64,000 nt of DNA from an uncultured bacterium (lineage in GTDB: Bacteria; Omnitrophota; Omnitrophia; Omnitrophales; Aquincolibacteriaceae), in the NCBI GenBank assembly GCA_964434115.1, contig CAYSSX010000004.1, positions 81,684-145,683 of the forward strand, written 5' to 3'. Each line of letters opens with the position of its first letter. The stretch's first letter is position 1. Both the position numbers and the translations under genes were made by a program. Below, piece by piece: positions 21,972 to 52,311 of the stretch. A model generated the notes under the pieces. It saw nothing but the letters and a program-made list of their open reading frames with translations. It had not been told where the DNA came from and made no database searches.

Positions 21972-22084
21972 GGTTTTATCCTTTCAAGATAACCCTTGGT
22001 GAAATTTCAGGATCAAGAGGAGTCCTTTGTTTCGGCATTTTCGACGGGTTTTTTGAGGGGGAAAACAGAATTAAACCCGGCCCG

Positions 22085-24883
22085 TTAGCCGGTATTCCGG
22101 AGGCCCGCGGCAACACAATTGATGGTTAAAAGAAGATGCGATTTGTCCGGCTCTGTGGCCGTGTCGGATTGAAGTTTTTTCAGCAGTTCCACCTGGAGAC
22201 GGTTCATCTCCCGGATGGCCGGGAAACGCATGGCGCTGACCCTCGCAAAATTCGGATGCTCTTCGTCCAGAGTTTTGGTTTCTGTCACTTTCAAAATCGC
22301 GGAAGCGGAGCGGTCAAACTCGGCCTGAATGGCGCCAAAAATACGCGCGCGTATGGCCGTGTCTTCGCAAAGCCCGGAGTACCAGCCCGCGACCGTCATA
22401 TCCGCGGTCAAAAGACTGGTTTTAACCGACATGATCAGGTTAATAAAAAAACGCCATTCTTTATACATCCGCTGGATCACGGCAAGGCGCTTGGGGTCCC
22501 GGATCGCGTCCGTTAAGGCACTGCCAAGTCCATACCAGCCGGAAATCAAATGCCGGTTCTGGGTCCAGGAAAAAACCCAGGGTATGGCACGCAGGTCCTG
22601 AATACCGGTGGTTTCTTTTCTTTTCACGGGCCGGGACCCGATATTCAAAAGCCCGATGACATCAATCGGAGATGCGGAACGGAAATAGGTCACAAACCCC
22701 GGGTCTTCGACGAGCGCCCGGTAAGACTGGTAAGAGGCCTGGGACAGGCGCTCCATTTCATCCGTAAAAATCTGAGGAATGGTCAGCGGGTGCAGTTCAT
22801 TTTCCAGACTCGCGGCCATCACACTTCCGGCCAGGAGTTTCAAATGATAAAGAGCGGTTTCGGGATTCGCGTATTTCGAAGAAATCACTTCCCCCTGTTC
22901 GGTCAGCTTAATGCGCCCCCGGAGTGTGCCGGGCGGAAGGCTGAGGATGGTGCGCTGCGTGGGGGCGCCGCCCCGGGAAATCGACCCTCCCGTGCCATGA
23001 AAAAATTTGAGAATCATTCCCTTTTCCCCGGCAACACGGCTCATTTCTCCCTGCGCCTTGTAAATCTCCCAGGCCGCGGCGGCGATGCCTCCGTCCTTGT
23101 TGGAATCCGAATACCCCACCATAACCTGCTGCATTAAACGCCGCGGAGTAAGGCTTTCCCTTACGATGGGAAAAGAGAACAAGGCTTCGAGAATAGCCGG
23201 GGAACGCCGGAGGTCGTGAATCGTTTCAAAGAGCGGCACAATCGAAACCGGGCAGATCTTCCCTTCGAAAGTCCCTGCCTCTTTCATGAATAAATAAACC
23301 ATGAGGAGGTCTGAAACATTCCGCGTCATGGAAATGATGTAAGAACCGATCAACTCCGGGTCAAGGGCCTTCCTTGCCCACGGAATCACCCGGAAGGTTT
23401 CAAGAATTTCCTGTGTGCCCGGGGTGTAGGGCTGCCAGGAAGCGATCAGTGCCCGGGGCGAGGCAATTTCCTTTTCAAGCCAGGCACACCGTTCGGTTTC
23501 TGATTTTTCAAGATAAGACCCCGCCCCGGCAAGGCGTGCAATTTCATCCATCGCCCGCTCCAGGGCCTCGCTGTTTTCCCGGAAATCCAGCTTCGCGAGA
23601 TGAAAACCGAAAGTCTTCACACGGAATTCAAACGGCCTGAGCCAGACCTCGGCCGCGCGGCTGCTGGCGTTCTGTTCAAGGCTTTGGCGGATGACCATCA
23701 AATCGTCAAGGAGTTCGCAGGGATGCCGGTAGGCGTGTACCGGCCACTGTTCAGGATCCAGCTTTTTCTCAATGGCTTCCTTGCGTGCTTCGATTTTGGT
23801 GCGGATCACGGAGAGTTTAATCCGGTAAGGTTCGTGCCGGTTCCGCATCTCAAACTCAGGGAAAGAAGGAACCGTCTTGCGGTCTTCAGCCAGGGACTGC
23901 ATCAGCTCTTCACTGCGTTTCATTTTCCAGGAAGAATGCGGAAATTTCCGGATCAGATCGGAGACTTCTTCACGGTAGAGATCGAGAATAAAAACCGAAT
24001 GCCGGAGAAGCGTCTGCTTCGTGACGCTTGCGGTAGCAAAAGGATTGCCGTCGCGGTCGCCTCCGCGCCAGCTTGAAAACTGGATCAGGGCCGGGATATC
24101 GAAGCGCTCCCCCGGAAAAGCCTGCTTTAAAGCACGGTACAACCGGCTCAAAACTACGGGAATCAAGGGGTAGAAAGTATTGCGGAAATAAAAAAGCCCG
24201 TTTTCCACCTCATCCATGACGCGCGGCTTCTCAAGGTAAATGTCCCCGGTCTGCCAAAGGATTTCAATTTGGGCTTTGACCCGTTCTGAAATTTCCTGGA
24301 TCTCACGGCTTGTCAGGTCCGCCTGATTGAGGCGTGAAAGTTCATCGTAAATCCGCTTATGGCCTTCCAGGACCGTCACACGCTTGGCTTCCGTAGGATG
24401 CGCGGTCAACACGGGCTGAATTTCAAATCCGGAAAGGAATGCCTTGATCTGTTCGGATTGAACCCCCTGACGCACCAGCATGTCAATCGCGGAGCGAAAG
24501 GCCCATACCGGGGAAGCGGAAGAACGCGAATTTTCATGAAGTTCAGTTTCTTCGCGCGTGCGCCGGGAGTGCGCGCCGCAAAGCTCTTCCGCGATATTAA
24601 AGAGATGGAACAAAATGGAATAGGCCTGAATCACGCCTTCGCGCTGCGCCATATTGTCAAACTGGCGGCGCCAGGCAGCCTCGGTCTCTTCAGCAGACGC
24701 CAGCGCGGGAAGCATCGCGGCAATCCCCGGAGCACCGGAAGAAGAAAGCACTTCCGCCAGAAATTCCTTAAGGCGGAAGGATTCCTTTTTAAACTGCTCG
24801 GGATCAAAATCCGCGGCGTTATACTGAAAAATAATCGGTTCCGGGTGATTCGATTTCATGACCTTCCTTGAGTCTTTCGGCAA
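22085..24883 (-). CDS. ppc: Phosphoenolpyruvate carboxylase
   Basis: 932 aa; signature VGYSDSNKDGG and FHGTGGSISRGGAPTQ; C-terminal TG. Confidence 0.9.
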   Translation of the reverse strand: MPKDSRKVMKSNHPEPIIFQYNAADFDPEQFKKESFRLKEFLAEVLSSSGAPGIAAMLPALASAEETEAAWRRQFDNMAQREGVIQAYSILFHLFNIAEELCGAHSRRTREETELHENSRSSASPVWAFRSAIDMLVRQGVQSEQIKAFLSGFEIQPVLTAHPTEAKRVTVLEGHKRIYDELSRLNQADLTSREIQEISERVKAQIEILWQTGDIYLEKPRVMDEVENGLFYFRNTFYPLIPVVLSRLYRALKQAFPGERFDIPALIQFSSWRGGDRDGNPFATASVTKQTLLRHSVFILDLYREEVSDLIRKFPHSSWKMKRSEELMQSLAEDRKTVPSFPEFEMRNRHEPYRIKLSVIRTKIEARKEAIEKKLDPEQWPVHAYRHPCELLDDLMVIRQSLEQNASSRAAEVWLRPFEFRVKTFGFHLAKLDFRENSEALERAMDEIARLAGAGSYLEKSETERCAWLEKEIASPRALIASWQPYTPGTQEILETFRVIPWARKALDPELIGSYIISMTRNVSDLLMVYLFMKEAGTFEGKICPVSIVPLFETIHDLRRSPAILEALFSFPIVRESLTPRRLMQQVMVGYSDSNKDGGIAAAAWEIYKAQGEMSRVAGEKGMILKFFHGTGGSISRGGAPTQRTILSLPPGTLRGRIKLTEQGEVISSKYANPETALYHLKLLAGSVMAASLENELHPLTIPQIFTDEMERLSQASYQSYRALVEDPGFVTYFRSASPIDVIGLLNIGSRPVKRKETTGIQDLRAIPWVFSWTQNRHLISGWYGLGSALTDAIRDPKRLAVIQRMYKEWRFFINLIMSVKTSLLTADMTVAGWYSGLCEDTAIRARIFGAIQAEFDRSASAILKVTETKTLDEEHPNFARVSAMRFPAIREMNRLQVELLKKLQSDTATEPDKSHLLLTINCVAAGLRNTG

Positions 24884-25096
24884 TTGAGCAAAGCTCCCTT
24901 CTGCAGAATCTGCGCATTATAGAGCAATCCGGCTTGTTCCCCAAAGGAAGATATGCGGTGCCGAAACCGGGACTTCTCGTTTAGAAGAAGTTTAGCATTT
25001 GCGGGGTTTTTCAGGGAAAGGGGGATGAGCCGGTTATCGCGGGAGCACGGCTCGAAGGGTTCCGGGAAAATCAGCCCGGCCGGCTAGGGTTCTCGT

Positions 25097-26032
25097 TTAA
25101 GCACCGCATAAGCGCCAGCGGTTATGCATCCAGAGCGTCCAGTCTTCGGGACGTTTACGGATCTGTGTTTCCAGGCGATGGGCGTATTGCTGAGTATTCG
25201 CGGTAAGGTCTTCCCGGAAATGTCCGGTCTTGATCAATTTAAACGGTTTTTGAAAAATAAGGACAGAACGGGTTTTTTCTTCACGGTAATAGAATGTCGA
25301 GATCACCGGCGTATTGTATTTAAGGCTCAGCGTGGCCGGAAGGCCTGAGGTGGCGGCCTTTCTTCCCAGAAAGTCCACCCAGACCTCGCCTTTCTTAACG
25401 TGCTCATCAATCAGAACAGCCACCACCTTGTTTTGCTGTAAAAGTTTGACCATTTTTCCAACCGCCCCTTTTTGGTCAATACTTTTCAACCCCGTGGCCC
25501 CGCGGAATCGTTTAATAAAGTCGTACACAAACGGGTTCTTCACCGGTTTTCCCACTGCGTGAATCGGAATCCCCCGGGCCGCAGCAGCAACGGCCATCAG
25601 TTCCCAATTCCCAAAATGTGACACGACAAGGATGACTCCCTTGCCCTCCTTGAGCGCTTCCCAGACATTTTCTTCCCCGCGGATTTCAATATGTTTTGCC
25701 GGGTTTTTCGCGATCACGGGAATGCGTAAAAATTCAAAGATGACCTTGACCATCCCCTGCATGGAAGCCCGCCCTATTTCCTGGACAGCCCGGATCGACT
25801 TTTTAGGAAATGCGGCCTGCACGTTTTCAATGGAAATACGCCGGCGGCGCTTGCGAAGAAAAAGAAGGGCGCCTACACCTTCCGCGATCTTCATGGACAT
25901 GGATTTGCTGCAGCCTTTGAAAATAAAGACCAGACTCCGGAAAAACAAGTACTGAAAATAAAAATAAACTTTACGCATGCTCTTCTTTCTTCTTCCGCAA
26001 TCCTGAAATTTGAACTTCCAAACACACGTCAT
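25097..26032 (-). CDS. Lipid A biosynthesis late acyltransferase (LpxL/HtrB-like lysophospholipid acyltransferase)
   Basis: N-terminal TM, HxxxxD-type acyltransferase region (SHFGNWE). True start is probably the Met at ~25978. Confidence 0.65.
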   Translation of the reverse strand: MTCVWKFKFQDCGRRKKSMRKVYFYFQYLFFRSLVFIFKGCSKSMSMKIAEGVGALLFLRKRRRRISIENVQAAFPKKSIRAVQEIGRASMQGMVKVIFEFLRIPVIAKNPAKHIEIRGEENVWEALKEGKGVILVVSHFGNWELMAVAAAARGIPIHAVGKPVKNPFVYDFIKRFRGATGLKSIDQKGAVGKMVKLLQQNKVVAVLIDEHVKKGEVWVDFLGRKAATSGLPATLSLKYNTPVISTFYYREEKTRSVLIFQKPFKLIKTGHFREDLTANTQQYAHRLETQIRKRPEDWTLWMHNRWRLCGA

Positions 26033-26189
26033 CCCTACACCGCCAGGGTTCTAAAAATTTATTATGACGCCTTCCGGGATGCCTGCCTGTGAGCAAGATC
26101 ACAAAATCTCTTAAAAGTTCCTGCCCCAAGGGGTCAGCCCGGTAAAAAAGACCTAAAAGACCCTTCACTGTACGCTGAATCTTTTGGAC

Positions 26190-26219
26190 TTGGTACTTAA
26201 ATCGGGAAAAGGGTATAAT
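26190..26219 (+). promoter_or_regulatory. Sigma70-like promoter TTGGTA-18nt-TATAAT
   Basis: -35 at 26190-26195, -10 at 26214-26219, about 15 nt upstream of the ATG at 26235; seen directly in sequence. Confidence 0.35.
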
Positions 26220-26234
26220 CCGGCCTCATCACCT

Positions 26235-26684
26235 ATGACAGACAGTGACAAGCCTAAAACCTTCTGGACAGTGCTTCCCGCGCTTTTGGCCGGCTCCGCC
26301 AGCCTGATCACGGCCGCAGTTGCGCTTATGAGTTTCTTATCTTCCAGCCATCCCAAAGAACCTTCTCCCCAGGTAAGCCCCGCGCCTCAAACCGTTCAGT
26401 TAAAAAACCTCAGTGAATGTAGTGAAATTGTAGGCCGATGGGATTGGTTTACGGGCGGAGAGACCCGTCTGGATGAAAACGGCGGGCTTGAGTGGCGGCA
26501 GAACCCTTATTCTCCGGTTCCGCTCGTTGTGGGACGCTGGGCATGCACCGGTTCTAATCCCAGAACGTTTCTCCTGAGCTGGCAGAACGGCCTCACGGAT
26601 TCCGTGACGCTTTCTCCCGATAAAAAGAGCCTTGCCGGAAGCAACCAGGCGAAGGTACTCGTTTCCGGGACCCGGAAATCCTGA
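26235..26684 (+). CDS. Hypothetical membrane-anchored protein
   Basis: Start re-assigned to MTDSDKPK downstream of the promoter; one N-terminal TM helix, Cys/Trp-containing soluble domain. Confidence 0.4.
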   Translation: MTDSDKPKTFWTVLPALLAGSASLITAAVALMSFLSSSHPKEPSPQVSPAPQTVQLKNLSECSEIVGRWDWFTGGETRLDENGGLEWRQNPYSPVPLVVGRWACTGSNPRTFLLSWQNGLTDSVTLSPDKKSLAGSNQAKVLVSGTRKS

Positions 26685-26726
26685 CCCCCTGTTTTTCCCT
26701 CGAAACCTCCCCTGAGAAGACTTCCC

Positions 26727-27521
26727 TCAGGAAATAGTTTTCCTTCCTTTAAGGGCGTCGGGAATAAACCACTTACGGGTCCAGGCCTTTAGAACTCGTT
26801 TGGAGAATATTTTCCGGGCCCTTTGATAGAGCTCGGCATCGAGGGCATTCGCTTTCATAATCACCTGGCGGGTTGACAGGCTCATTTGAAAACCCATGTT
26901 GTTCTCCCATCCTCCATTCAGCGGAACATAATCCAAAACTCTCCAATTAAAAACTTCCGAAAAGTGGCGGACTGTATCATCGAACCTTTCCAGTACGCCG
27001 AACGCGGACATTTGTTCACTTAAAATCCGGCTAGCCTTCTCGAGGTCCGCTTCGGTTACAGTTCCAAAAGCCTTATCCATGGTGTCTGAAAGCATACGGA
27101 CCTGAAAATTATCCAATTCCCGGCTGAAGCGGCTTTGGGCAAAAGCTTCCAAGGATAACCCCGGTTCCTGTGTTAGTTTATAGAGATAGTCGCTGGGCGA
27201 TCTCAAAATATGAAAATAAAAAGACGCAATACGGTCTGCGGGATCTCTCAGAAGGGTCAGGTACCGCCATGACCGGAAAGGCAAATCACGGTGGAGCCCG
27301 TAGGGAAAGTGCCCGGAAAGAATCCGGTATTCTTTTTTTTCGGTTTCGGGCAGGGAGAGAAAGTTTTCTTCGTCAAGCCGTGAATGCATCAAACGGATGC
27401 GGACGCCCGGGTAATTGGATTGAAGAAGCCCATTCAGCGTAGTTCCACCGGTTTTTGGAATATGCAGGAAAATGAAACCACGATCATCTTCCTCAGGCTT
27501 TCTAAAACTCATAGCCCGCAC
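26727..27521 (-). CDS. Sulfotransferase (Sulfotransfer_2-like carbohydrate sulfotransferase)
   Basis: PAPS 5'-phosphosulfate-binding motif FLHIPKTGGTT near the N-terminus; 141 nt downstream of the giant ORF on the same strand. Confidence 0.65.
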   Translation of the reverse strand: MRAMSFRKPEEDDRGFIFLHIPKTGGTTLNGLLQSNYPGVRIRLMHSRLDEENFLSLPETEKKEYRILSGHFPYGLHRDLPFRSWRYLTLLRDPADRIASFYFHILRSPSDYLYKLTQEPGLSLEAFAQSRFSRELDNFQVRMLSDTMDKAFGTVTEADLEKASRILSEQMSAFGVLERFDDTVRHFSEVFNWRVLDYVPLNGGWENNMGFQMSLSTRQVIMKANALDAELYQRARKIFSKRVLKAWTRKWFIPDALKGRKTIS

Positions 27522-27662: not shown

Positions 27663-30600
27663 TTAGGCAGACGCAGAAATACTTCTAAGCGCTTTAAAAA
27701 TCTGCCCAAGATTCGCGAAAGCGCTTGAGCTAGCCTGAACAAAAAGCCCGCTCTTGAGCTGCTGCAGCCGGCTTTCTTCAGCGCCCTGAAGAAGAAGCAC
27801 TGCGGCTTGAAGCAGCGACACACCGTAACCGCGGTTCTTTTCATCAAATTTCAAAAGCGCTCCGCCCGGCAGACGGTCCGCCTGAATTCTTGTCTCCCGG
27901 GCAGGTTCCGGAATCACGCCTTCCGAATCTCCGTCCGCGGTCCAATCCACCCAAGCCGAAAGCGCGCCCTTCGGAATTAAACTGCCGGTCAAGCGGTTTG
28001 AAGCGGTCACAATCGGCATGCGGGAGTAAATTTGGTTACGCACGGCGGCGTCTCCAGGGTATTCGGTCTTAAGAAACTCCAAAAGTTTTTCCCGCAAAGG
28101 CTCGGCGTCTTCATCACGGTCTACGGTCAGTACCACATAATGAGCCTTGGCCTGATTGGTTCCGATCAGAAAGCGGGCGGTATCAAAAATCTGCTCCAGG
28201 GCTTCCCTTTTGGAGGCATCCCGGATATGCGCGAAAAGCGCAATCACTTGTTTGCTGTCCCGCAGAAGGGCCTGAATATTTTCCACCTGATTCTGGAAAC
28301 CTTCACCGCCTTCATTTCGATAGTACGTTTCAACCGCTCCCCTTAAGGCCAAACGGTAATCATTCAGAACCGCACTGTCCCAGGAAGGATCCGCAATGCC
28401 CCCAAGCATCAAGGCCGTGTCATAAGCGTCACGCCCCGTCGGTGCCGCAATAAACGGAAGCCGGACTGCAGGAATATCAAGTGAACCCGGTGCAAAATCC
28501 CTGAGTTCAGAGCGGGTTAAAAATGCGCGGACAGTCTCCGCAGCTGTCAAAATTTCAGGTGTCAAATCCCCTTCTTTCAATACAAGCGGCGGATTGGGGT
28601 TGAGCGGCCAGGTCTTTAATCGGTCAATTTGCCCGACCGCGTGTTCCAGGTAAAAACGCTCTTCTTTTGAATCTGTCAGCGGCGCTTCCACATCAAACGG
28701 ATACTCCACCGGAGTAAAATAAAACCCGGGCGTCTTAAGCGAAAGCCCCATAGTTTCAGCATTCTGTTTCCACTGATGCTGGAAAATTCTGAGGGACAAA
28801 AGCCCGCCTGTGGGAATCTGGGTAAGAACAAAATTCTGCGATTGAACAGCGCCGTCTTTTACGGCCTGGGCCAGCGAAGTCACATTCATGCCTGTATGCA
28901 TGGATTCATCCACGGAATCAAATCCTTTGATTTTGGAAGCAAGGGCAGGATCAAGGGCCAGAATTTCTCTCCGGAGACGCACACGTTCAGGCTCCGCGGC
29001 GCCGCCTTTACCGACAATCACAATTTCAGGAGAGTTAAGTTCACGCGCCTTCTTCACTACGGCTTCGGCGTACCCTTCGTAAGGATTCCCCAAAACCACA
29101 AGCGCATGATCCGCGGGAATGTCTTTGGACTCGGCGGCAAGATGCCTAAACAGCAATTTCGCCGCGCTCTCCTCAGCAGCAGCGCTTTCACTCCGCAATT
29201 CAGAACGTGCTTTTTGAATCATCACATAAGGGATCACATCGTCTCTGCGCTTCACCTGCGTTTTAACAGTCCCATAAACCGCATTTGCAATCTCGGGCGG
29301 CAATACCGCTTTCGCCTGATCACCAAACTGGGCAGGATCCGGAACAATCCCCTCTTCAAAGGCCATGATCAGGATTCCGCCGGGCTTCAATTGCTGAAAC
29401 AGTTGTGTCTTTAAGGTTTCATCAATACTGCGGGGAACAAGAAACCAGGATTTCAAAATGGCTGTGTCTTTCAGGTCAGAAGGTTTTGTAAGAAGCATGC
29501 CGTCCTGAGAATCGAAATCAGCAAGGCCAAGAACCGCGTGGTTTGCAAGAACATCCGGGAGCGCCAGGTACAAAGCCGCTTCACGGCTGTCTGCACTGAA
29601 ACCGGCGTCAGGAGTCAACACGGTCACAGGCTTTTCTGGCTGCTGATTCTGCTGTTCTCTCACTTCGGCCGGAAGACTGTAGTTCCTGAACTGTGCGGCA
29701 AAAACAGGAGAAGCAGGCTGAATGGCTTCGGCTCTGAGTTCGGAGCGCTGATAATCATAGCGCTTCGATTCCAGAAGCACTCGCAAGGCATGGCGGAAAT
29801 TCCGGCGGGTCTCCGCGCTGCTATACAATTCATCAAACGCCGCAGAAAAAACCGTGCGCCCCGCTTTTTCGATCACTACTTTACCGGCTTCGGCGCGCAC
29901 ACCGGCAGAACGCCAGTCGTGATCACGAAAACCGCCCTGAACTTCCGGCAGACTTCCTCCCCGGGTCAGTCCATCCGCAGCTTTTTCAACACTATCCGCC
30001 CAGACAGGCCATTCGCCGAAAATCTGTATAAGGATTTGCCGCGGCTCCTCTGTCCTGAGCACTTGAATATGGATGGCTTCGAACCATTTTTCAGCATAAC
30101 TCACAGCCAACTTGCGGTCTATTCTTGAGAGACGCGCAATGGCCCGAAGACCGTCGATAAAGACCTGAGCCTGCGCATCTGGAAACCCGTAAGATTTCAG
30201 AAAGGCATTGCGGGTGCCAAATTGAACAACTTCATTTTCGATGTCTTTTTCACTGAAGTTCCTCCGGGTTTTAAGAAGCTTCACTCGGACAGGTTCAAGC
30301 AGCGCATGCAGGGCTCGAAAATCACTAAGCCGGGAGGCCCCTTGACCTTTCTCAATGAGACTCTCCAAAATCTCAAGGCCGGCTTGGGCTTTTAAAACTT
30401 CCTCGTCCTTGTCAAAACCCAGGCTGCTGGTGCGGAGTTCAGAGCGTGTATCAGGTTCTGCCGATTCCTCAATCGCAGCTGGCCGGACGGCCTGTTCCAC
30501 CAAGAAAAAAGTTCCTTGGAGCGTGATCCGGTAGGGCCCTTTCACCTTACCCAGCACTGAAGAAACCGTCGTGCTGACAAAAGCGCTTTCCCCTCCATGG

Positions 30601-33600
30601 CTTTCAAAATAGTACCCGCTTCTAAGCGTTTCCCAGACGCCATCCGATGACCGCTTAATTCTCACGGTCGCCGAGAGGTCCTTTTCATAGGCTTTTCTGA
30701 GCCTCATTCTCAAATCCTCAACTTCAAAAACATAGCCCGAAAGTTCTTTCTCTTCCTTCAAATGGGCAAGAATTCCTTCCTCGACTCTTTTTAGCAGAGT
30801 CAACGACAGGCTCTTATCACCCGTAAAACCAAAAGCACGGGAAGCCTGCAGCATGGTCATTGATTCGCTTTTACGCAGCCGCTTGAGCTCCTTCAAAAAC
30901 TCATCGGTAAGATCAAGTCCCCAAACCACATCGGCATGGCTGATGTTCTTAAGAGTCAACTGGGGGTTTCCGGAGGAGCTCAATTTTGCATTGGCTTGGG
31001 TCAAAACCTCTTCCTTTAAAGAAGCTAACACCTGCCAGCCTTGTTTCTGGATACGGTCAAGGTAGGCCTGCTTTTCCTGTCCGAGCAGCTGGAGAAAATG
31101 TCCGGGGCGGACATAAAGCAGTGAGGGATCCATGCCCATAGCCGAATAAAAGTCCCGCATCGCTTTGGGATCCATACCGAAAGATTCCGCGACAAGTTTC
31201 ATATTGCCGGCATAACGGTCATACCGTTCACGCAGAATTCTCCGCATTGGAATCTCCATTCGGGCTGCATAAAAAAACGTGTGATAACCGCGTGTTTTAA
31301 GCCAGACAATCGATGAATGCTTTCTATAAAACTCAGGAATACTCCAACGCAGTTCGAGAGAACCCAGCTCATCGAGGACGTCTGCCGCTTCGATTCTCCG
31401 GCCGGTTTCAGAGGAGAGCGCTTCGAGAACTCGAATCTTGCGGAGATCCTGAATCTGCCCCAGCGCCGCAGGCTGGTAAGCATCATCTTCTGGTGCCGGA
31501 ATGACTTCGGGGTTTTCAAACCGCTGTTTGGTAATCGCCAGCTCAGCCAGGCTTTCGCGAAGAGCTCTCATTTTTCGCGTGCTTTTTTCACGGGTAAATC
31601 CAAACGATTGCCCTACGGACGTGTCAACACCCCCAAAACGGCTGCCTCTAGCGTCATCCTCCTGCGCAAACTCCGCTGCAAGGTCCAGTGTCCATAAGAG
31701 AAATCCATGATCCATGCGGGGCGCGTCGAATTCCGGAAAGAGTTCCAGAAACTGCGAGCGGAAGACCGGAAGATTCCATGTCAGGCCTTTGGAATCAGGC
31801 AATCTCAGCCAGGCTAGCAGATTTTGACGAACAGCTTCATCATCAGCCTTTACCGCCGTGTCCTTGAGAAATACGGCCAAGTGTTCTTTCCCCTCTATCG
31901 TCTGAGGAATCCGGCTTGTGTCAAAAGCTGCAACACGCGCCGGAAGCTCCCGGAGAAAAGTTCTCTGAAGAACCGGACGCTCTGATAATTTGACGACAGG
32001 CTGTCCGTTGTAAGCAGAAAGCTTTTCATAAACAGCATTCAGCATCCGGAAATCCGTCAGCCCAAGGGCTTCAGAGGTCTTTTCTGCATAACCCAAAAAC
32101 TGATCATAAATGCGTTCGATCTCCTTTTTATAAGGTTCAGCTATGCCAAGCGCATACGCAAAAGATGCCGAACCTCCCGCCGCCGTGAGCGTTGACAGCT
32201 TTCCTAGATAGCGCTTTGATAAAAGAGCGTGAAGATCACGCATACGCCAACGGACAGAATCCCCGGAGGCAAGAGCCATCACAACTTCTTCACTGAGCCC
32301 AAGCTCCTCACGCAGCCAGCCCTGTTTCTTTTCTTCTAGGTTCCTGAGCTCTGAACGGGGATTCCATTTTCCGCCCGCGCGGACAGTCGTAATATTTCTT
32401 GATTCCTCAGCTTCAATCCAGAGCGTCGTGGTTTCATTTTTAGGCGAAGGCGATGTTACCGGAGGCTGCCAGTGATCGACTTCCCAATAGCGGATCAAAG
32501 CGCCAATCTGCTCATCCGTAAATTCACGCCTGCCGCTGGTCCTGGCCTGGTGTTCATCCTGTTGAATACGTCCTGCGATCATGCGCTCAACCGTAGGCCG
32601 CGGGAAAGCAAAGAATCCGTCAAAGCGGTCAAAAACGGGTTTGTACTTCTGAAGCTCTTCAGCTACCACTCTTTTAAGACCGGGCTCAACCTGAGAGACA
32701 TCGATATCCGTATTCGCTCCATTCAGCCACCCCTCAAACACAAAGACTCCAATCTTGCCCTTAATCGTATCCGGGGTTTCATGGTCATCCTTCAATTTGC
32801 TGAAACGCGGCAATTCAACAACGGTGTCTGGTCCGCTCTGTTCCATCTCGCGAATATTGCGTTCAATCCACGCGACATCCTGAGTTCCGGGCAAGGCACG
32901 ATTGACCTTCATACCCGGTGCGTAGCCTTTTTCACGCAGCTTTTCGCGGACGTCTTTCGGTAAGTAATAATCATCCAGCGAGCGGGCCACAGCCTGACCT
33001 TCGCTGTCATCCAGCATTTCGTTCAGCAGCAGCGCCATCACTCGGGACAAAGTGGTCTTCCCGCTTCCGATCGCACCGCCGATGCCAAGAACAAAAAGTT
33101 CGTCCGGACGACGGCTTCTTTTTTCAGCGAGCACCCACTGGGCCAGAGGCAGGTAAACACGCCAGAGGGAATCGATCGCGACATCCTCACGCAGAACCTG
33201 TGTCTTCCAGAACTCCCGGAATGAGGGCCAGACTTTTCTTAAAACTTCGATCCGGTCCGCCACAATTTTCTGTTTATCCGTTCCAAAGTACTGTGCCGTT
33301 ACCGACTGCGCAGGGTCCTGATCAAGAAGGGTTTCAAGCTTTTCAAGTTCTTCGGCTCTCGGAGTTCTGCCTTCAGCGATCTCAATAAGCGCGGACCACA
33401 ACTCAGCGTCTTCAGCACGAAGCTCCGACCGTCCCAAGGCCTCGTTCAAACGGCCTGCAATGCTGGCACCATAACCCGCCTGTGTGAAGCCCAGACGGGC
33501 TTTGATAAAGGCGTTGTTGACTTCACGCTCATTCAACTTCCCGAAAATCCCTGCGAGGTCTTTGGCAATCGCTTTAACAGCGGCAGCTTCATCAAATCTT

Positions 33601-36600
33601 TTTCTGGGTTTCGTGACCTTATCACTTTTCAAGGCTTCACGAATGACCCCTTCGATGATTTCGATCGCCTTCGCTTCAGAAATCCGCACCTCTTCTTTTC
33701 CAGCAACTGTAACCGGCGAGGAAAGTAACTTCGCCATTTGATAAACCAACGGCCTGGAACCTTCCAGACGTCCGCCATTCAACGCCGCGATACCAAGAGG
33801 CGTATAAGCCAAAGTTTCTTTGGGCTCTCCGGTTTTAACGGCGGTCAGTAAATGAAATTTTGCGTCCACCCGGACCTTTCCTTTTTCAATACCCCTTGTC
33901 ACCTGCTGCACCACCATCCCTTCCGAATAAAGGATGTGATTCACAGCGGGATGAAGCCCAGGAATAGCTGAACGGTCGATCAGATATGTCTTAGAAATTT
34001 CTCCTGCGGATTGAATCGAAAATCCCGCGGCTTCGGCGGCGCGCTTGACCCGCTCAAGATGCAGTGCAGGCCTCGACACAGCCACATGTTTGAGCGTTTG
34101 CGTCTCCCGCGATTTTTCAGCAAGCCACTGACTGATAACTTTAAGATTGGCCGTCCCACCTTCCGATTGAAGCGCCTGACTCACGGCCGCTTCAGGAGAA
34201 GAGGGGCGGGCCGTATAAACCGTCATGTACTGCCGGATCATTCCCCAAACAGCCGTCTCTCCCGCTTTGGGCTGAAATTTTCTTTTCATGAGATTCCAAT
34301 CGATAGTCATCATCCCTGTAGGACGCCATTCGCCGGGAGCAATCTCTGTAAAATAAGGAAATGCGACCCATCCATTCCGTTGCGCTTCATAAACCTCGGT
34401 CGTGATGGAAGAACCCATATCAAGTCCCACAATCAGCTTCCCGCCAGGTTTCAAAGTTGCTGCGATGTCACGGATTACAGCCGGGAGCTCCGGAACAGGC
34501 AGGGTATCCAGACCCGCCCAGCTGACTGCCGCGGCCTTGTCCTTAAAAGGAATCGGTTCATGACGCAAATCCACAGGGATAACTTTTTTGACTCGGCCCC
34601 TGCTGTAACGAAGGGCATCCATATTCATGTCGGTCTGAATCCATGATGGATAGCGCGGATTTCCCGGATACCAATCCGCGAAACCATCATGCGCCCAATC
34701 CCACAGGGTTCCGGCACCGGCTCCGTATTCCACCACTCCCTCAATATCTTCCGGGGCAACAAGAGCCTTCAGTTCAGGAACAATGTATTCTTGAACAAAT
34801 TGAGGCCCCAGGGCGTCCATGCCTACCGATTGGCGGGCCCTTTCATACATCTGATGAACCGCGACCCCTTCACCATCTTCCCATTCTTCATCCAGCACAT
34901 TAGAGGAAATAGGCCTTGGACGGGTCATTCTGCTTCCGCTGTCAGGCTTGAAAGAACTGCGTTCTTCGGACGTGACCGGCATGCCCATCACCGTTCGGAG
35001 AACTTTTACAAACGGCTGATCCAGACGCTTGTAAAGAGGCGAAAGTGTTTGGGGAGCATCGCGGTAAACAACATCGTAGGCCGCATACTCGAGGCTGCTT
35101 CGGCCGTCATGATCAAGTTTAAAGTCATTCAGATTGAAATCCGGATTCTCCAGCTGATCGTGAAAAAATCCTTTAAAAAAGGCTTGATAGGGATTGATGT
35201 AGCCCGCCTTGTAAAATTCTTCCAGCCGGTTTCCAAAACGGATTTTCAGATTCAGCATGGCGTATGTCAGCGTCATGTACGCGTAGCCAAAAGCCTGTTC
35301 AGGCGTCAAATCTTCACGAATCTCCCACCCGCCGAGATCATGCCATGTTGTAGGCAGTCTGCCTGAGGGATCCGCTTCGAAGTTGGCAAAATGCGGGGAA
35401 TGCGGGTACAGCCCGGCATCCACAACTTTCCGGAGTTCCCTTCCATAAACTTCTGAAAGTTGATCAATGTTATTTTCTTTTAAAAGTTCTGGAATAACTT
35501 GCGCAGGATCAAAGTATGTAATTTGAAAAGTTGTCAGGGCCCGGCGTTTCACGTCAGCCATGGCATTGGCATATCCACGAAGCAGTCCATTGACCGCTTT
35601 TTCCTGATAGGTCTTGAAGCGCTTCTCGCTTTGACGGTGCGCTGAAATAAAAGCGCCCAGCGGTTCGCCATCTTTTTTAATGTGATCGGGTGTATAAAGA
35701 GCAAACCCCACGGCGACCGGTGTTCTCAATCCTTTTTGGGGAAGCACGGTTCTTGCATTCGCAAATTTCTTGGCCGCCGTCTTTCCTCCATGCCCGCCTT
35801 TCTGGGCAAAGGCCGCGGGCCGGAGATCCGGGCGTCCATCAGCGGCCACATGCACACTGATAGCACTTTCCCGGATGGTCTCTTCATCAAGATCTTCCGT
35901 TCCAGCAGAGGAAGATCCCCAATTCAACCCCCGGAAATCTTCTCCAATGTTATCGCGGTTAAACAAAACGCCCGAAACAATGATGCCGTCAATCTCTTCG
36001 CCTCGAATGGTTCCCTTCCAGGCAATTTTGACAGCCCGCTTTTCATCAGAAAAACCGTCTTCGCGTTCAATATCCCCGGCTTTCCATTGATCGCGGTACT
36101 CGGCAATCACCCGCTCAATTTTTTCACGAACTTCTTCAGGCAAAAGGTTCCAAAGTTCTTCATCCGCCGTCAAATCTGCTGCGCGCTCACCTTCAAGATG
36201 CTTTTTGATCAAGCCCTGATCGGCGGGTTTTGAAACAACTGGCGCGTAAACTTCGGCTTCAGGAGCCGGCTCTTGCTGCACGGTAAATTCTGCGTCCACA
36301 ATCAATCGTGCCGCCAGCTTGAACTGCTGAAAATAATCGGGAATCAAGTAGCCTTGTTCCGTAGCTTGCCCGCTTTTCTCAACACGGAACAAGAAGGCCC
36401 AGCCATACTGAGGATGATTCACGGCTTCGAGTAATGTATAAACAGCCGGGCCAAGACCATAGCGGTCCCCCGCATGAAGTCCTGCAGCCGCAGCCTTGTC
36501 CCTAAACTCTTGCTCTGCAGGCGGCAAAAGAGACAATGCCGCGGGAGAAACACGAACAAAACGCATTCCAAGCTGCCGTTCACTCACCTCAAGTCCTGAA

Positions 36601-39600
36601 GTAAATCTGACCTTGCCCGCAGAGGAATCGATAGATTCGATCGTATAAACCGTATCCAGAAACTGTGTGTCCCGGACCTGATCCCCTGCCTTCCACTCAT
36701 TTTCATCAGAACGAAGCTCGGAGCGGACTTCAACCTTTGTTTTTTCAATTTCTTCTTTTGTGAGAACCGTTTCAAAAGGAAAACCCGCGGCAGCTAAAAC
36801 TGAAAGAAACTTTTCGCCAGGCTGACCTGAAAGATCCGCGTAAGGAGGCGCGGAACCAATGATTTTGCTCAAGGAAGCGCGGTTGATCGGAATCTGCACG
36901 CGGTCAAGTTCAGTTTTCTTGGCAACAACCTCCGCAAGAAAAGACTCGACCGCTGTGCGGGATTTAAAATCAATCATGTCAAAAGCGAGAATACCCTGAA
37001 GCGCGGGGTCATCTGTTTTCCTGCCGTTGAGGCCTGCCCATTCCGCCAGCGTCTCGCGCGCGTTCGTGACCACCTGATCAGAGAAAAACATCGGTTCCTT
37101 CACGCTTGCGTCTGGAACCAATGCCGGTGCCTGGGAAGGGTAGTTGCGGACAAAGCTCGATTTATTCTCCTCCAATTCTTCTTCACCCAACGCGACAAGA
37201 ATCTGGTCAGGACGCCCGGTGATTTCCGCGCGGTCCCACACTCCGCGGTAAAAAAACATCCGGAACCCGTCAGGCAATGCGCCTTCTTCATAAAGCTCCT
37301 TCACAGCAACCTTGACTGTCATCTCGGTGATCGAGTGAGCGCCGTGATCCATAAAGCCTTCCCCGTTTACAATAACCATCCGTGGCTTTTTGGAACGGAT
37401 CACGTCTTTAATCACGTCAATGTCGCTTTGCCGTGCTGTCCCCTTGCGTTCAAGCGCGTACCAGCTGGATTGAAAAGGAAAGAAAATATCGTCGTACCCC
37501 ACGCCGCGGCTCATGAGTTCGGTCTGTTCTTCCACAAAGCGGAGGGCTACTTTCAATTTCTGCATGACCACAATTTCAGAAGATCCCCAATGCGGCTTGG
37601 CCTGGATATAAATTTCAAGTGCATCCCTCAGCGCAGAAATTCTTTCCGGCGATGAAAGCTGCCCCTTCAGAGAGGATTCAAAATTCAACCGGAGGAAGAG
37701 CAGTTTAGCCCGGAGTTTCTGTTCTTCAGCAGGCATCTGGGACCAGGTGTCGTAATCCATAGGGTCATAGGCAAGATCACGTGCAGCGAGAACCTTGATG
37801 AGTTGACGCAGGTATTTTTCTTCACTTTGCTTGAAGGCGAAGACAGAACGGGTTTCTTCCGCAAGCGCCGCAAGCTCATCCACCCTGAAGTTCTTGAGCG
37901 TTCCAAGCGCACTTAAAACATATTCATCCGAAACGGCCGTGTATCCGGGCGCCGTGTAATAGGAATAGAGCCGGTGTCCCTGTTTTGAAAACTCGGAGAC
38001 CAGAAATTGCGCGGCAAGCGAAAGATCGTCGAGATGCGGACCGATGTGAACGATTTCATCGCCGGGGCGAAGCCCAAGACGTGCAGGAACCTGTTCGGAT
38101 TTAAGCGGGTCCTTGTTCAGGGTTTTAACGACCTCATCCCTCAAAACCTCCCAGGGCTGGAGAGTTGTCAGCGCAATAAGGTTCTTGGTACGGATCGCAG
38201 CAATTTCAGTCTGATCTTTTCCCGGCGACTGAAGCCAGTCATCGATAGTAAGCGCCGAGACAGGTTTTCCGGTTTCTTTTGAAAGGCGGACAAACAGCTT
38301 TGCCTGCAGATCCGCATTCCATTCCCGGGCTGGAATTTCAACAAAATCCCACGTGTTTGTAAAATAACGAAGCGTGCTTCCCGAAGCAGACTCCATAATC
38401 AGGACACTGCCCGGCGCGCCGATCTGCAAGGCGGTCATGGGGTACTGAATGTCGGCTGTTCTTTCCACAAGACTGCGGACAGACTCGCGCTTTTCCTTAC
38501 CATTAATAATGGTGATAAAAATCGGGTGGCTGCTCCTGATTTCTTTGGGTCCCAAAGTCGCGCCGCCGATCTTGATCTCGCCCGACGGAGTACGAAAATG
38601 CTGCATCCCGCCGCGGTCCTTGATATTCCCCGCCGCCGCGTGGTAACTGAGAAGCGACATCACAAGACCTTGATCAAAAGGCGTTCCCGCTTCATTAAAA
38701 GCAAAGTGCCCTTTTCCCTCATACGAAGGTCCGGCGCTGAAAAGCGCAATGTCGGGGCCTTTGGCCAGAACAAACTCCGCCATCTTCTTTGTGTAGCGGT
38801 TGACGGCTTCAAGGTAGGCGTACTGCGGATGATCTTGGGCAAGCTGGCCTTTTAAAAACTCATCAAGCTTCAAACCTTCTTGATCAATCGAAGCCTGGAC
38901 TTTTTCAAATTCGGCCTTGTCCATTTTGTTATCCGCGCCGGGTTCGATGAGATCATTCTTCACGTCCCCATAAAACATGCGGCGTTTCTCGCGCGATATT
39001 CCGAGTTTATCAAACATATTGTGAAGTTCATTGGCATAGGAGTAATAGTCATCTCGGCTTTGAGGGAAAATGGTGTCAAGATGCGTTGCAAAGATGCGGC
39101 CCATGTCCGGCTTATCGGAAAGATCCACTCCGTTTGCCGTAAGAAGCTGGCGTGTTTCATCATCCCAGCTGCCCCAGCTGTCCAAAATACTGGCAAGCGT
39201 TGTAAGGCCAAGCCACTGCGTGTTACCGGTTGCAAAGATAATAAAGACATCACGGTCTTTCTGCCCCGCAGCATCATAGGCCTTTCTCTTGCCCTGGATT
39301 CCTTTAATGATCGCCGCAGCCTGCAAAGCTCCCGTGTGCGCGATATCGCGTCCCACGCGAAGCGTTGTATCCGGTGCCTGGCTGAACACCTTTTCATAAA
39401 GGTCGAGGCCCTTCAAGCGGCCGTCCAGACCAATCGCTTCCGCATTTTCTGTCCTCAATTCAGAGCGCGTCGTCTCCGCAGCAGAAATCCTTTCAAGCTT
39501 GAGAAGGTTATATCCTTGGTTGCGGCCTTCGTAGGTTTTGGTTTCGAGAACCTCAATGCTCCACGCCCCATCGACAAGCTCTCGCAAGTCTTCCATGTCG

Positions 39601-42600
39601 CTTTGCGAAAAAATCATCTGGATACGGCCGCCTGGGGCAAGATACCGGGAAGCTTCTTCAAAAAAGCGCTTCAAGACATCCCTCTGATCATCATAAATAG
39701 ATCTCTCCAAAATGCTTGAGGGACGGCCGGCTAGTAGCGGGGGTGAGAAAATAATCAGATCAAACTTTTCTTCCGGAGAAACGGCTTCAAAAAGATCGCT
39801 TTTCCTGGCCTCCAATTTTCCTTTCAGGCCAAGATGCTGGATATTGTGCTCGATATTGGAAACTGCTTCATCACTGACATCCGTGGCCAAAACATGACCC
39901 GCGCCTTTTTTGACCGCGATAATGCCCTGATAACCGGTCCCGCTTCCAATGTCCAGAACCCTGTCGCCTGGGTTAATCTCCAGGACCTGTCCCAAAAGCG
40001 GACTGCTCACATTTTTAATGGCCGGGTTAAAAACATTCCGGTGCACGTAAATGCCTTCCGGAATCCCCTCAACCTCAACGAGAATTTGGTCACGATCGCC
40101 CATAGCACGGCGGGAAGCATCCAAAAACTTGAGTCCAAGAAGATCTTCGCGTGTCAGCGAGGGCGCCGTAGAAGCTTGCTGATTAACACCCGCTGCCCCT
40201 GTTCGGAGTTCCGAGCGTACCCACTGCCGGAGTCTTAAAGGCGGAATTTCTGAAATCATTTTGCCGGCGTGCTTCGCTAAATGATCAAGAACCTGCGCAG
40301 TTCCCGCCATTTTATCGTTCGCAATAAATGTCCCTTCGGGAAGACGTGAGGCATAAGAAGGCAGGCTTCTCAAGAAGACTGGAACAACAGCATGCGAAAA
40401 CCCTGCAGGGCCTTTCAAACTAAAAGTCGGAATATCATTGTCTCCGTCACCGATCACAATCATAAGGAGCGGCTGTTTCGGGTCGAGCTGCCGATAAATC
40501 TGCTCGTTCAAAGTTTTGCTTACGCCTTCAATCTTGGAAACGCGCGCCATATCCACAGCGCCCGGGACAGACACCACGTAAAGGTCTTCTGTCCCTGGAG
40601 GATACTTTTTCTGAACTTCGGTCATGATTCCCGGCGTGAATTCTGCAGGCAATAAATCTCTTAAGGAGGGTGCATCAAAACTGACCTTCGGTCCCACATC
40701 GTAAACAAAAACCCGCCCCCAGCCTTTCAGAAAATCCTGCGGAAGCAGATCAAAAATATACTTGGCTTCATCGGCCTGCTTTTCTCCCCAGGCTTCGGGG
40801 CCAATGGCCTCAAGCGCTGCCATACGTTCATCCCGGATGGCATCAATCTTTGAATCCGGTGTATCTTTTAAGGCCTCTGCCAAAAAACCCTGCCGCTTTT
40901 TGAGTTCTTGATAAAAAGCCTCTGCCAGTGCTTTGGCATATTCAAAACGGCGCGCCTTGGGCCAGGAATCGAGCTCTTCCCGGTAACGGACGGAGGCATC
41001 TGCCGCAAATCCTATGCGGCGGGACCCGCCGTCAGCCACAATGTGAAAATGTTCTCGGCCCGAGCCGGAGATTCCATCAAGAAGCGGAGTGTATGTTCTT
41101 TCTGCCAGGTCTTTAAGCGGGTCTCCGGAATTCACAAGCAGGAAAAACCCGTCCCGGCCTAAGAGTTTGATACTGTCCTCAAGAATAGTGCCGCTGAGCG
41201 GATCCCCATACCCCTGAACCATCGTGCCGGTGTTGTCTGAAACAAAAACAATCTGGTTGAGAGGCTTGTCCTGCTGATCTGCGGGGAAAAGCGATCTCAC
41301 ATCCAGTTCTTTCTCAACCAACTCATAACCGTTTTGAGTATCCCCTGTCCGCAGCTCAGAGCGCCGGGTATAAACAGTAATTCTGGGGAAGCCTTCGTTA
41401 GCTCTGACATCAAAATCGCCATTCGAAGTGAGAAGCTCACGCAGTTTTTCAGGCGCGCTGGCATCTTCCCCGATTGTGACAAGGCGGGCACCGGGACGAA
41501 GCTCACGAAGCGTTTCTGCAAAAGCATTCAGATCACCTGAACCAGCCTCCGCGTAAACGACCACAGAGGCCTCCCTGAACAGATCTTTGCGGTCATTAAA
41601 GTTTCCTCGCATGAGATTGATCTGGCCGGGTTTGATAAGATTTTTCTTAAGGGCCTGCGAATGAATCGCCTGACTTGCCTTGAAATGATCCGGGCTTCCT
41701 TCCACTCCGGCAAAACGAATTTCCGGGTTCAGTTTCAGGGCACGGCTTGCGAGCCGGCCGAGAAGAGCACCGGTACCATGACCTGCATCAAGAACCAGCG
41801 CAGGTCCTTTGGACGGAAGTCCCAAAGCTGCGAAGACAAAGTCAACATAGGGTGACGGCGTGGACGCAAATTTTCCGATAGGATTTCCTTCAGCGTCTCT
41901 TGTCCCTGTAATTTTTCCGTTAATCCCGTACTTCCGGACAATCCCATCCCAGCCGCGGTCTTCTTCCGCAAAAGGGCTGTTCAAGGATCTGAGCTCAGAT
42001 CGTTTCGAAAGACTCTCTTGAACGGCTGAAAAGTAAGGTCCTTTCATGTCCACTTCAAAGCCTTCTTCACGAAGCGCCTGCCTGATGGCCGAACTTTGTC
42101 CCGCAACATCCCACCCCTGAGCAAGGGATGCCGCAGGGTCGTTTGCCAAAACCGTTTGTTCGAGGCCGGCGCTGCGCATCATGATTTTGTGGTAAAGATC
42201 ATTTCCAAGGTCCCCTGAAACATGCGGTGTAATCACGACAAGCCCCATCCCGCGTTCGCGCAGGCGCTCTTTCATGCCCGCACCATGAAACCCGCCGGTC
42301 ACAAGAACCGCTGTCTTTTGTCTCCGCTTCTTAAGGCCTTCCGCCATCCGGTCAAGAAAGGCCTCTTCCCGGCGGCTCATACCTTGGTAAAAAGCTTCAG
42401 CGGTCTCAAGACTTTCTGCCAAAGAGGGTTCGATCGCAGAGGTTTTTGCCCCCTGCCAATTCTCCCAATCACGGGGTGACATCTCAAGACGCAGCAGCTT
42501 CCGGGTCAGCATAAGATTTTGATAGTTGCGGACAATTTCCCGCTGTTCCGGAGTGTTCATTTCTTTTTCCAAAAGCTCTTCAAAAAGCCGCTCCATTTCC

Positions 42601-48424: not shown

Positions 48425-48498
48425 AGAAGTGACATAATATCAGTCAGTTCCGGCAGGCCGTCAAGGGGCTTCTTGCGCTGCCGGAAAGCCGGCCGGGT

Positions 48499-49302: not shown

Positions 49303-49303
49303 C

Positions 49304-52280: not shown

Positions 52281-52311
52281 GCCCTGGGGAGTCTACTCAG
52301 GAAGCTGTCTC

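Follow-up and report, generated by a model that had tools for sequence, protein, structure and literature searches.

We analysed a 64,000-nucleotide stretch of Omnitrophota DNA (the window; contig CAYSSX010000004.1 of assembly GCA_964434115.1), which carries on its reverse strand a giant gene whose product contains the pentapeptide RSELR eleven times. The window is ordinary bacterial chromosome, with genes for phosphoenolpyruvate carboxylase, cytochrome oxidase subunits and lipid A acyltransferase (Pfam), and a protein identical to the giant is present in the public protein collection (P0013). The gene was taken from the list of open reading frames (ORFs) and its translation. Its RSELR sites, which for reasons given below we call delimiters, are listed here in amino acids (aa) of the giant, with other proteins given as P numbers and other loci as L numbers.

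27663..43649, minus strand: giant gene, ATG start, 5328 aa plus stop
41988..42002, minus strand: RSELR site 1, aa 550-554; first delimiter, right behind the N-terminal domain; kept in P0109 and L005
41349..41363, minus strand: RSELR site 2, aa 763-767; homology of the HAD-like module to P0112 begins at aa 768; RAELR in L005
40203..40217, minus strand: RSELR site 3, aa 1145-1149; HAD-like homology stops at aa 1143; left edge of the S3 indel relative to P0109
39453..39467, minus strand: RSELR site 4, aa 1395-1399; right edge of the S3 indel relative to P0109
36711..36725, minus strand: RSELR site 5, aa 2309-2313; 88% identity to P0109 ends here; P0157 ends ~10 aa upstream
33417..33431, minus strand: RSELR site 6, aa 3407-3411; P0117 homology stops at aa 3405
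32343..32357, minus strand: RSELR site 7, aa 3765-3769; from the translation
30432..30446, minus strand: RSELR site 8, aa 4402-4406; from the translation
29733..29747, minus strand: RSELR site 9, aa 4635-4639; from the translation
29193..29207, minus strand: RSELR site 10, aa 4815-4819; P0109 homology restarts exactly here
28500..28514, minus strand: RSELR site 11, aa 5046-5050; last delimiter, immediately ahead of the C-terminal domain; P0140 homology begins at aa 5046 (KTELR there)

From the composition of the protein, 0.0138 copies of RSELR would be expected (Poisson P(>=11) ~9e-29). No pentapeptide exceeded three copies in 200 shuffles of the giant, and apart from pentamers that overlap the motif (SELRT four times, SELRS and TRSEL three times each) the most frequent 5-mer in the real sequence occurs twice. 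The giant contains no relaxed variant of the form [RK][ST][ED][LIVM][RK] besides the eleven copies, RSELR is absent from all other frames of the window, and the wider pattern R[SAP]E[LIVMASTG]R is found outside the giant once in the window, in an antisense ORF. Codons vary among the copies (CGA, CGC, CGG or CGT for the first Arg, TCT, TCG, TCC or TCA for Ser, GAG or GAA for Glu, CTC, CTG, TTG or CTT for Leu, and AGA, AGG or CGN for the last Arg), so the recurrence is no DNA repeat and selection acts at the peptide level. The residue following the motif is S, T, T, T, S, A, N, T, A, S and D at sites 1 to 11, and in close relatives the delimiter is 100% conserved with flanks 33-83% identical. 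An earlier note on this DNA had described eleven exact copies with a chance expectation of ~0.01, different synonymous codons in each, a small or polar residue (T, S, A, N or D) behind them and unconserved flanks; all of this is confirmed, with the second site moving from ~765 to 763. We give next to no weight to the recurrence being a chance event, a repeat at the nucleotide level or an error of assembly or annotation. These were ruled out by the P value and the codon variety, by the presence of the same protein and many homologues in independent assemblies, and by a 60-fold enrichment of the motif across the family described below. Internal translation starts behind each motif were also considered and dropped, because the 10 or more residues after each site contain no Met.

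The eleven sites divide the giant into 12 pieces of 549, 213, 382, 250, 914, 1098, 358, 637, 233, 180, 231 and 283 aa. Read from its N-terminus, the protein comprises a signal-like segment, a TIKI-like domain (the N-domain), ten cargo modules (S1 to S10) and a conserved C-terminal domain.

43572..43649, minus strand: Sec-signal-like segment, aa 1-26, MLTPPMKKAIGLLVLLSFISKEAVWA-D, read from the sequence
42150..43517, minus strand: N-domain, aa ~45-500, TIKI/TraB/ChaN/EreA/RRSP-like alpha/beta core with a ~290-aa helical insertion; candidate protease
41364..41987, minus strand: S1, aa 555-762, S-adenosylmethionine (SAM)-methyltransferase-like, VLDAGHGTG at aa 619 (motif scan); no significant Pfam match
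40218..41348, minus strand: S2, aa 768-1144, HAD-like, FVSDNTGT at aa 802 and GDGDND at aa 1067 (motif scan)
39468..40202, minus strand: S3, aa 1150-1394, HemK/MTS-type methyltransferase; Pfam MTS 1.1e-16, domain match aa 1201-1349
36726..39452, minus strand: S4, aa 1400-2308, NagB-like plus PIG-L/LmbE-like, matches at aa ~1630-1935; NCBIfam PRK02122 3.7e-24, Pfam PIG-L weak
33432..36710, minus strand: S5, aa 2314-3406 (1093 aa), SAM-motif-I-like VVEYGAGAG at aa 2972
32358..33416, minus strand: S6, aa 3412-3764, P-loop nucleoside/nucleotide-kinase-like, GAIGSGKT at aa 3525
30447..32342, minus strand: S7, aa 3770-4401, no Pfam or NCBIfam match
29748..30431, minus strand: S8, aa 4407-4634, no Pfam or NCBIfam match
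29208..29732, minus strand: S9, aa 4640-4814, no Pfam or NCBIfam match
28515..29192, minus strand: S10, aa 4820-5045, 68% identity to P0109 and 30% to P0105
27666..28499, minus strand: C-terminal domain, aa 5051-5328, ending ...RSISASA-COOH; homologous to the C-termini of P0109, P0140 and P0122

Every verified domain or motif feature of the giant falls between RSELR sites. Of the module calls made in the earlier note, the HemK-like methyltransferase, the NagB plus PIG-L/LmbE-like pair, the P-loop kinase, SAM motif I at aa 619, 1231 and 2972 (motif scan) and the HAD-like motifs were recovered; a DUF218-like module was not reproduced in the giant, and Pfam and NCBIfam gave no significant family match beyond residue 3765. 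The last 509 aa have no PDB sequence match. S2 shares 42% identity with a module of P0001 and 32% with one of P0112, and S3 reaches 1.3e-25 with NCBIfam PRK14968, under the cut-off of that model. S5 has no match in Pfam, NCBIfam or PDB sequence searches and is 58% identical to P0117 across aa 2465-3405. Kinase matches of S6 in NCBIfam are weak (2e-4 to 5e-3, aa ~3515-3640).

Comparison with relatives places the breakpoints between modules on the motif. The S3 methyltransferase module is absent from P0109, the closest relative of the giant. Across this junction the giant reads 'RQWV RSELR TGAAG...[250 aa]...AAETT RSELR TENAEAIGLDGRLKGLD' and P0109 reads 'RQWQ RSELR AAGTETIGLDGRLKGLD'. S4 is 88% identical to P0109 in a match that ends exactly at site 2309, and homology to this relative returns exactly at site 4815. 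Alignments with further family members start at aa 768 and 5046 and stop at aa 1143 and 3405, in every case no more than 5 aa from a site. In L005 an unrelated module replaces S1 between two conserved delimiters, and in P0122 the DUF218, Methyltransf_4 and Pyr_redox domains (Pfam) each lie between consecutive sites. S4 also corresponds to the complete standalone proteins P0156 and P0157 from other bacteria (933-938 aa, 45-49% identity, 96% coverage), which have no signal peptide and no delimiters and one of which comes from a 'Deltaproteobacteria bacterium' metagenome-assembled genome (MAG). The delimiters therefore bracket units that are entire gene products elsewhere. The homologue labelled Deltaproteobacteria suggests that the polyprotein frame has taken up whole genes, or has given them off. 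The earlier note had proposed that the motif separates globular modules and had suggested checking whether gains and losses of modules in relatives break at it. Both hold here, given the S3 indel and the stop and restart of homology in P0109, the S1 swap in L005, the standalone counterpart of S4 and a number of sites that scales with the number of modules, and a delimiter role of the motif is strongly supported by these sequence comparisons.

The relatives belong to a large family defined by the N-domain. A profile built from an alignment of the first ~500 aa of 11 sequences was used in an exhaustive search at E <= 1e-3 and matched 10,121 cluster representatives, 7,071 of them at E <= 1e-30. 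The domain lies at the extreme N-terminus in 150/150 of the matches listed, in proteins of 530 to 7498 aa, and the giant itself aligns over aa 1-499 with 591 bits. Word-based searches returned few relatives, which share the first ~500 residues and bear RSELR, RSEVR or RSEIR. All taxonomically named sources of family proteins are Candidatus Omnitrophica or Omnitrophota. A scan of one genome per species, with a tight 4-sequence alignment as the query, yielded 58 loci, the titled ones all in Omnitrophota MAGs, often several per genome and sometimes in tandem; homologues were located on Omnitrophota MAG contigs of up to 300 kb. Same-strand tandem genes are found in L037 (1-9696 and 9809-16576), L026 (9857-14545 and 16567-21486) and L060 (1-4164 and 7587-13031), and paralogues from one genome include three loci of MAG bin-136 as well as P0117 and P0140. 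One locus, L047 (DCTJ01000069.1), is split into several delimiter-rich ORFs with masked X residues and looks like a low-quality or frameshifted assembly. Cargo in other members includes PFK, PGM/PMM, FHA and response-regulator receiver modules, and the source names of family proteins mention NUDIX, LpxC-like and CMP kinase content.

Across 153 family proteins RSELR is one form of a family-wide R-[S/A]-E-x-R, strictly RSELR in the lineage of the giant. RSE.R was observed 549 times against 9 expected, and with Lys in place of the last Arg or of both the excess disappears (RSE.K 9 observed and 8 expected, KSE.K 5 and 7), so both Arg are required. Among R.E.R forms we counted RSEVR 124, RSELR 109, RSEAR 96, RAEVR 63, RSEMR 57, RSESR 54, RSETR 39, RAELR 32 and RSEIR 27, with V, L, A, M, S, T, I or G at position x. 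The second position is Ser in 73%, Ala in 22% and Pro in 5% of sites, and RAEVR, RAELR and RAEAR are all strongly over-represented. This composition bears on the idea, raised in the earlier note, that the Ser is modified (by phosphorylation or glycosylation), and on a related one in which it acts as a self-cleaving nucleophile through an N-to-O acyl shift. Ser is indeed the commonest residue at this position, but it gives way to Ala and Pro, unlike the two Arg and the Glu, which are required; one RSELR of the giant reads RAELR in L005, and self-cleavage would need a conserved folded context where the flanks are unconserved; we therefore hold a Ser-based role to be very improbable.

The placement of sites follows the cargo. 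Only 6 sites in the 153 proteins lie ahead of the GGFH motif and so inside the N-domain; the first site stands at a median of 145 aa past GGFH and the median spacing between sites is 252 aa. Site count correlates with protein length (r = 0.74, ~2.2 per 1000 aa). Each member of more than 2000 aa has at least one site, and 13/19 minimal members of ~1000 aa, which consist of N-domain and C-terminal domain only, have none. Around the sites S, A, P and T are enriched before the motif, A, S and T and then acidic residues after it, and Leu is depleted. The motif is specific to the family of N-domain-headed proteins. At 53 species-representative loci its density is 3.05 per 1000 aa in family proteins versus 0.16 in other ORFs, 27/31 of the sites in non-family ORFs fall in ORFs resembling neighbouring family genes or fragments of them, and the motif is absent from the flanking genes of the window, L001 and L004.

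A signal-like start, the N-domain and the C-terminal domain form the constant frame of the family, with the delimited cargo between the two domains. The signal-like segment is the sole hydrophobic segment of the giant, and a comparable one is present in 130/154 family proteins. These segments recurrently carry an acidic residue and a Trp before the predicted cleavage point (SKEAVWA-D, TEIVWA-N, GETLWA-D), which is unusual for a plain Sec signal. At the other end, 106/153 family proteins terminate in SA or AA after an amphipathic helix. A ~220-aa profile of the C-terminal domain matches most members, gives no score for the giant itself at E <= 1e-3 and has no solved relative among PDB sequences. 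Several members carry R[SA]ExR 8-14 aa from the C-terminus. We take the -[SA]A tail to resemble HlyA-type secretion signals; type I secretion was considered on this basis and dropped, given that no such genes were identified in the window and the Sec-like N-terminus speaks against it.

In one part of the family the delimiter is of another kind. P0112, P0127, P0131, P0143 and P0150, which form a single clade in the N-domain tree, contain 5-8 copies of [AGS]SLG, and their cargo is free of R[SA]ExR save one copy in P0131. In P0112 an S2-type HAD-like module lies between 'SGSSLGQEP' and 'QAASLGSES', at the positions taken by RSELR in the giant; SSLG/ASLG boundaries of this protein lie, for example, at aa 4711 and 5109. 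Other lineages prefer [KR]SEGR (P0027, P0028), RSDxR (P0053, P0076) or RPEAR (P0042). These exchanges matter for the possibility that the chain stays uncut and R[SA]ExR is a linker motif within a tethered multi-enzyme assembly, where it might dock a partner or chaperone, act as a hinge, or provide a checkpoint for export or folding. The flanks have a linker-like composition, and published accounts treat Omnitrophota giants as single multi-enzyme or scaffold chains and leave cleavage open. A passive linker would, however, be unlikely to be exchanged for a strict [AGS]SLG at the same boundaries in another clade, and would have no need of three invariant charged residues. The motif also parts the N- and C-terminal domains from the cargo and appears only with cargo, the occurrence of one module as an entire free-standing enzyme elsewhere speaks for units that function alone, and docking would lead one to expect a partner nearby or the motif in other proteins, neither of which is seen. 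We consider an uncut chain rather unlikely.

The N-domain offers a candidate for an enzyme that would act on the delimiters. Its conservation was computed on 103 sequences of multi-module members, and the main conserved features are as follows.

43422..43424, minus strand: His76, invariant, after the first core beta-strand; proposed catalytic His
43338..43340, minus strand: Glu104, invariant, in an E-G pair; proposed catalytic Glu
42369..42371, minus strand: Arg427, invariant
42285..42296, minus strand: GGFH, aa 452-455, GxxH-type with an invariant second His; G452, G453 and H455 100%, F454 99%

Twelve residues are invariant (H76, E104, G105, G139, F420, Y421, R427, G452, G453, H455, P475 and Y486). 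In the TIKI superfamily a His-Glu catalytic pair has been described from the structure of RRSP (H3902-E3930; H85-E113 in Bcr135), and RRSP and Tiki are site-specific endopeptidases (PMC6254334). The 28-aa spacing from H76 to E104 equals that of Bcr135 and RRSP. A second Glu, two residues ahead of the first His in RRSP, is partly conserved in the family as D, E, N or T. An AlphaFold2 model of the N-domain (predicted local distance difference test, pLDDT, 81) has a parallel-sheet alpha/beta core split by the ~290-aa helical insertion, with His76 after strand 68-74, Glu104 after strand 100-103 and His455 after strand 446-452. In this prediction the central parallel beta-sheet superposes on solved members of the TIKI superfamily, and the structural relatives are listed here with their PDB entries and scores.

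HopBA1, 5t09, 10.0
ChaN, 2g5g, 9.8
BcR135 and BcR136, 2rad and 2qgm, 9.5 and 9.1
TraB-family protein, 8bqs, 9.1
EreC, 6xcq, 8.7
RRSP (MARTX effector), 5w6l, 8.1

Other searches gave less. The full N-domain has no Pfam or NCBIfam match above threshold, its profile has no match among PDB sequences, and Foldseek against the PDB was not significant. With the helical insert deleted, 1/7 sequences matches PF04187 'Tiki superfamily, ChaN' (E = 5.7e-4, 20.4 bits against a cut-off of 27.7). We think it likely that the N-domain belongs to the TIKI/TraB/ChaN/erythromycin-esterase/RRSP superfamily. In the [AGS]SLG clade acidic residues are lost at N-domain positions 113 (9 aa past Glu104), 211, 237, 244, 316 and 326, and a similar number are gained; these positions may be specificity determinants.

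The genomic context is relevant to whether a partner is encoded separately. Envelope and glycan genes surround the giant in the window (21051-27521 and 43942-53589). Its neighbours include a sulfotransferase, an LpxL-type acyltransferase, two GT2, a GT9 heptosyltransferase-like gene, two PMT_2, three Acyl_transf_3 and several methyltransferases (four small). Two adjacent ORFs of ~600 aa with TTG starts (16853-18667 and 18535-20328, both minus strand) overlap by ~130 nucleotides and have no Pfam match at E <= 1e-4. Pfam identified no protease gene and no ABC, MFP or TolC genes in the 64 kb, with a few ORFs without a match or unscanned. Two other family genes have neighbours with no relation to those of the giant, and no conserved partner gene, protease or secretion system adjoins the family gene in the three loci inspected. 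Neither the co-occurrence with a specific protease nor the shared neighbourhood for which the earlier note suggested looking was found there, and nothing in these neighbourhoods hints at a partner encoded by another gene.

A separate enzyme encoded elsewhere, such as an Arg-specific serine or cysteine protease, could still cut the delimiters, with the N-domain hydrolysing another substrate or serving as an anchor. Two invariant Arg would suit a trypsin-like or kexin-like enzyme, and one enzyme acting in trans would be economical with several paralogues per genome. Members of ~530-580 aa are N-domain only and many of ~1000 aa are siteless, which points to a role of the domain without a site in cis, and no N-domain residue cleanly follows the switch from R[SA]ExR to SLG. 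Against this stand the absence of a conserved protease beside the gene in the three loci, the mere ~4 motif matches in clearly non-family flanking ORFs of the 53 loci, which leave no other substrates there, and the catalytic signature of the N-domain, which is 100% conserved in all 103 multi-module members. We regard a separate protease as unlikely. The simplest candidate enzyme is the N-domain, the hydrolase-like domain with which every member begins.

The reading that we prefer, at about even chances, is that the giant is a modular self-processing polyprotein, cut by its own N-domain at the delimiters. From sequence, the motif sites are probably self-cleavage sites. The His76-Glu104 pair together with His455 would serve to recognise each delimiter by its two Arg and its Glu, and cutting would release the N-domain, the C-terminal domain and each of the ten cargo enzymes as a polypeptide of its own, in a manner analogous to the MARTX cysteine protease domain freeing effectors or to a viral protease acting on its polyprotein. 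We infer that the motif is cut and that the N-domain cuts it, and likewise the bond and the compartment. Export toward a host or prey cell may be involved, which is consistent with the symbiotic or predatory lifestyle proposed for the phylum (PMC10066038), and the signal-like segment may alternatively be an anchor.

Several observations weigh against self-processing and temper our confidence. The topology is a puzzle, in that a Sec-signal-like start heads cargo of cytoplasmic type needing SAM or ATP and the standalone homologues of S4 lack a signal peptide. Half of the sampled members of 700-1300 aa have no motif. A TIKI-type fold is no proof of protease activity, because the superfamily also includes esterases (Ere) and the haem-binding ChaN. 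We found no clean specificity-switch residue in the N-domain between the R[SA]ExR and SLG clades, and the way in which delimiter type tracks N-domain clade could stem from shared ancestry alone. In an AlphaFold2 model of aa 1-1150 everything past the N-domain has pLDDT below about 50-55. The model gives neither linker placement nor active-site docking around sites 550 and 763 (pLDDT <50), and it places site 1145 in a helix at pLDDT ~50-55.

Known systems share parts of this arrangement. As in MARTX toxins, a very large chain has constant N- and C-terminal regions around variable, shuffled enzyme modules, and a built-in protease domain is proposed, for the giant, to free modules at short sites between them; the N-domain shares its TIKI-type fold with the MARTX effector RRSP. 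In contrast to MARTX, Pfam and NCBIfam find no RTX, hemolysin-type or glycine-rich repeats in the whole giant and no Peptidase C80 or other cysteine protease match, no type I secretion genes were identified near the gene, and the candidate protease is TIKI-like and sits at the extreme N-terminus. The giant further differs in its Sec-signal-like N-terminus and in cargo of metabolic or regulatory-type enzymes rather than known toxins. The MARTX processing site is Leu-containing, unlike R[SA]ExR. With the TIKI/TraB-PrgY-GumN/ChaN/erythromycin esterase/RRSP/HopBA1 proteins the N-domain shares the parallel-sheet core, a His after the first strand, a Glu 28 aa on, a conserved Arg and a GxxH motif after a later strand; it differs in the ~290-aa helical insertion that splits the core. 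We know of no member of this superfamily that is fused to its own multi-site substrate, nor of one that recognises an Arg-x-Glu-x-Arg site. Viral polyproteins (picornavirus 3C, potyvirus NIa) combine one ORF for many mature proteins, a short degenerate site between each two products and a protease within the chain, as proposed for the giant, but the giant lies on a bacterial chromosome, has multiple paralogues per genome and has a candidate protease of another fold.

Further parallels are in the same phylum. The Omnitrophota giants termed 'multi-enzyme metabolic clusters', described in two preprints (bioRxiv 10.64898/2026.06.07.730766; West-Roberts et al., bioRxiv 10.1101/2023.11.21.568195), are also mostly without Pfam annotation and contain methyltransferases, HAD, PGM/PMM, response-regulator receiver, kinase and NUDIX modules; they differ in covering proteins of >=10,000 aa or genes of >=20 kb. 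Possible cleavage of Omnitrophota giants is discussed in both preprints and in one further paper. C39 or S8 peptidase domains are proposed there as possible processing enzymes (bioRxiv 10.64898/2026.06.07.730766; bioRxiv 10.1101/2023.11.21.568195), and one of the two states that cleavage points are unknown and that this blocks structural analysis. An R[SA]ExR delimiter did not turn up in a term search of both preprints, and neither the TIKI-like N-domain nor the C-terminal domain is described in the passages that it returned. Literature searches found no description of the motif or of polyproteins in Omnitrophota, in agreement with the statement in the earlier note that no bacterial family with an RSELR delimiter was known. 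Within the literature found, this would be the theme of autoprocessing polyproteins in a new form, with an undescribed delimiter, N-domain and C-terminal domain.

Giant genes are characteristic of Omnitrophota, most of their products have no annotation, and whether these act as a single chain or are cut is a question explicitly posed in the literature. With thousands of family members carrying it, the motif can be used directly as a rule for splitting giant proteins into modules for annotation and structure prediction, and the analysis names a candidate protease with three residues to mutate and a concrete peptide for proteome searches. If the sites are uncut, the motif is still a strong unexplained mark of domain boundaries in a phylum-wide family. 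If they are cut, they would map the cleavage points, missing so far, of at least the TIKI-headed class among the giant proteins of this phylum, and the TIKI superfamily would gain a new activity and a new architecture. We tentatively propose, at somewhat less than even chances, that Omnitrophota express a large share of their enzymes as self-processing polyproteins, with a delimiter code cut by a TIKI-like protease and delimiters serving as the joints at which modules are gained, lost or swapped. Bacteria would then be using the logic of polyproteins, with modules shuffled at defined joints, as a cellular equivalent of the way in which viruses express theirs.

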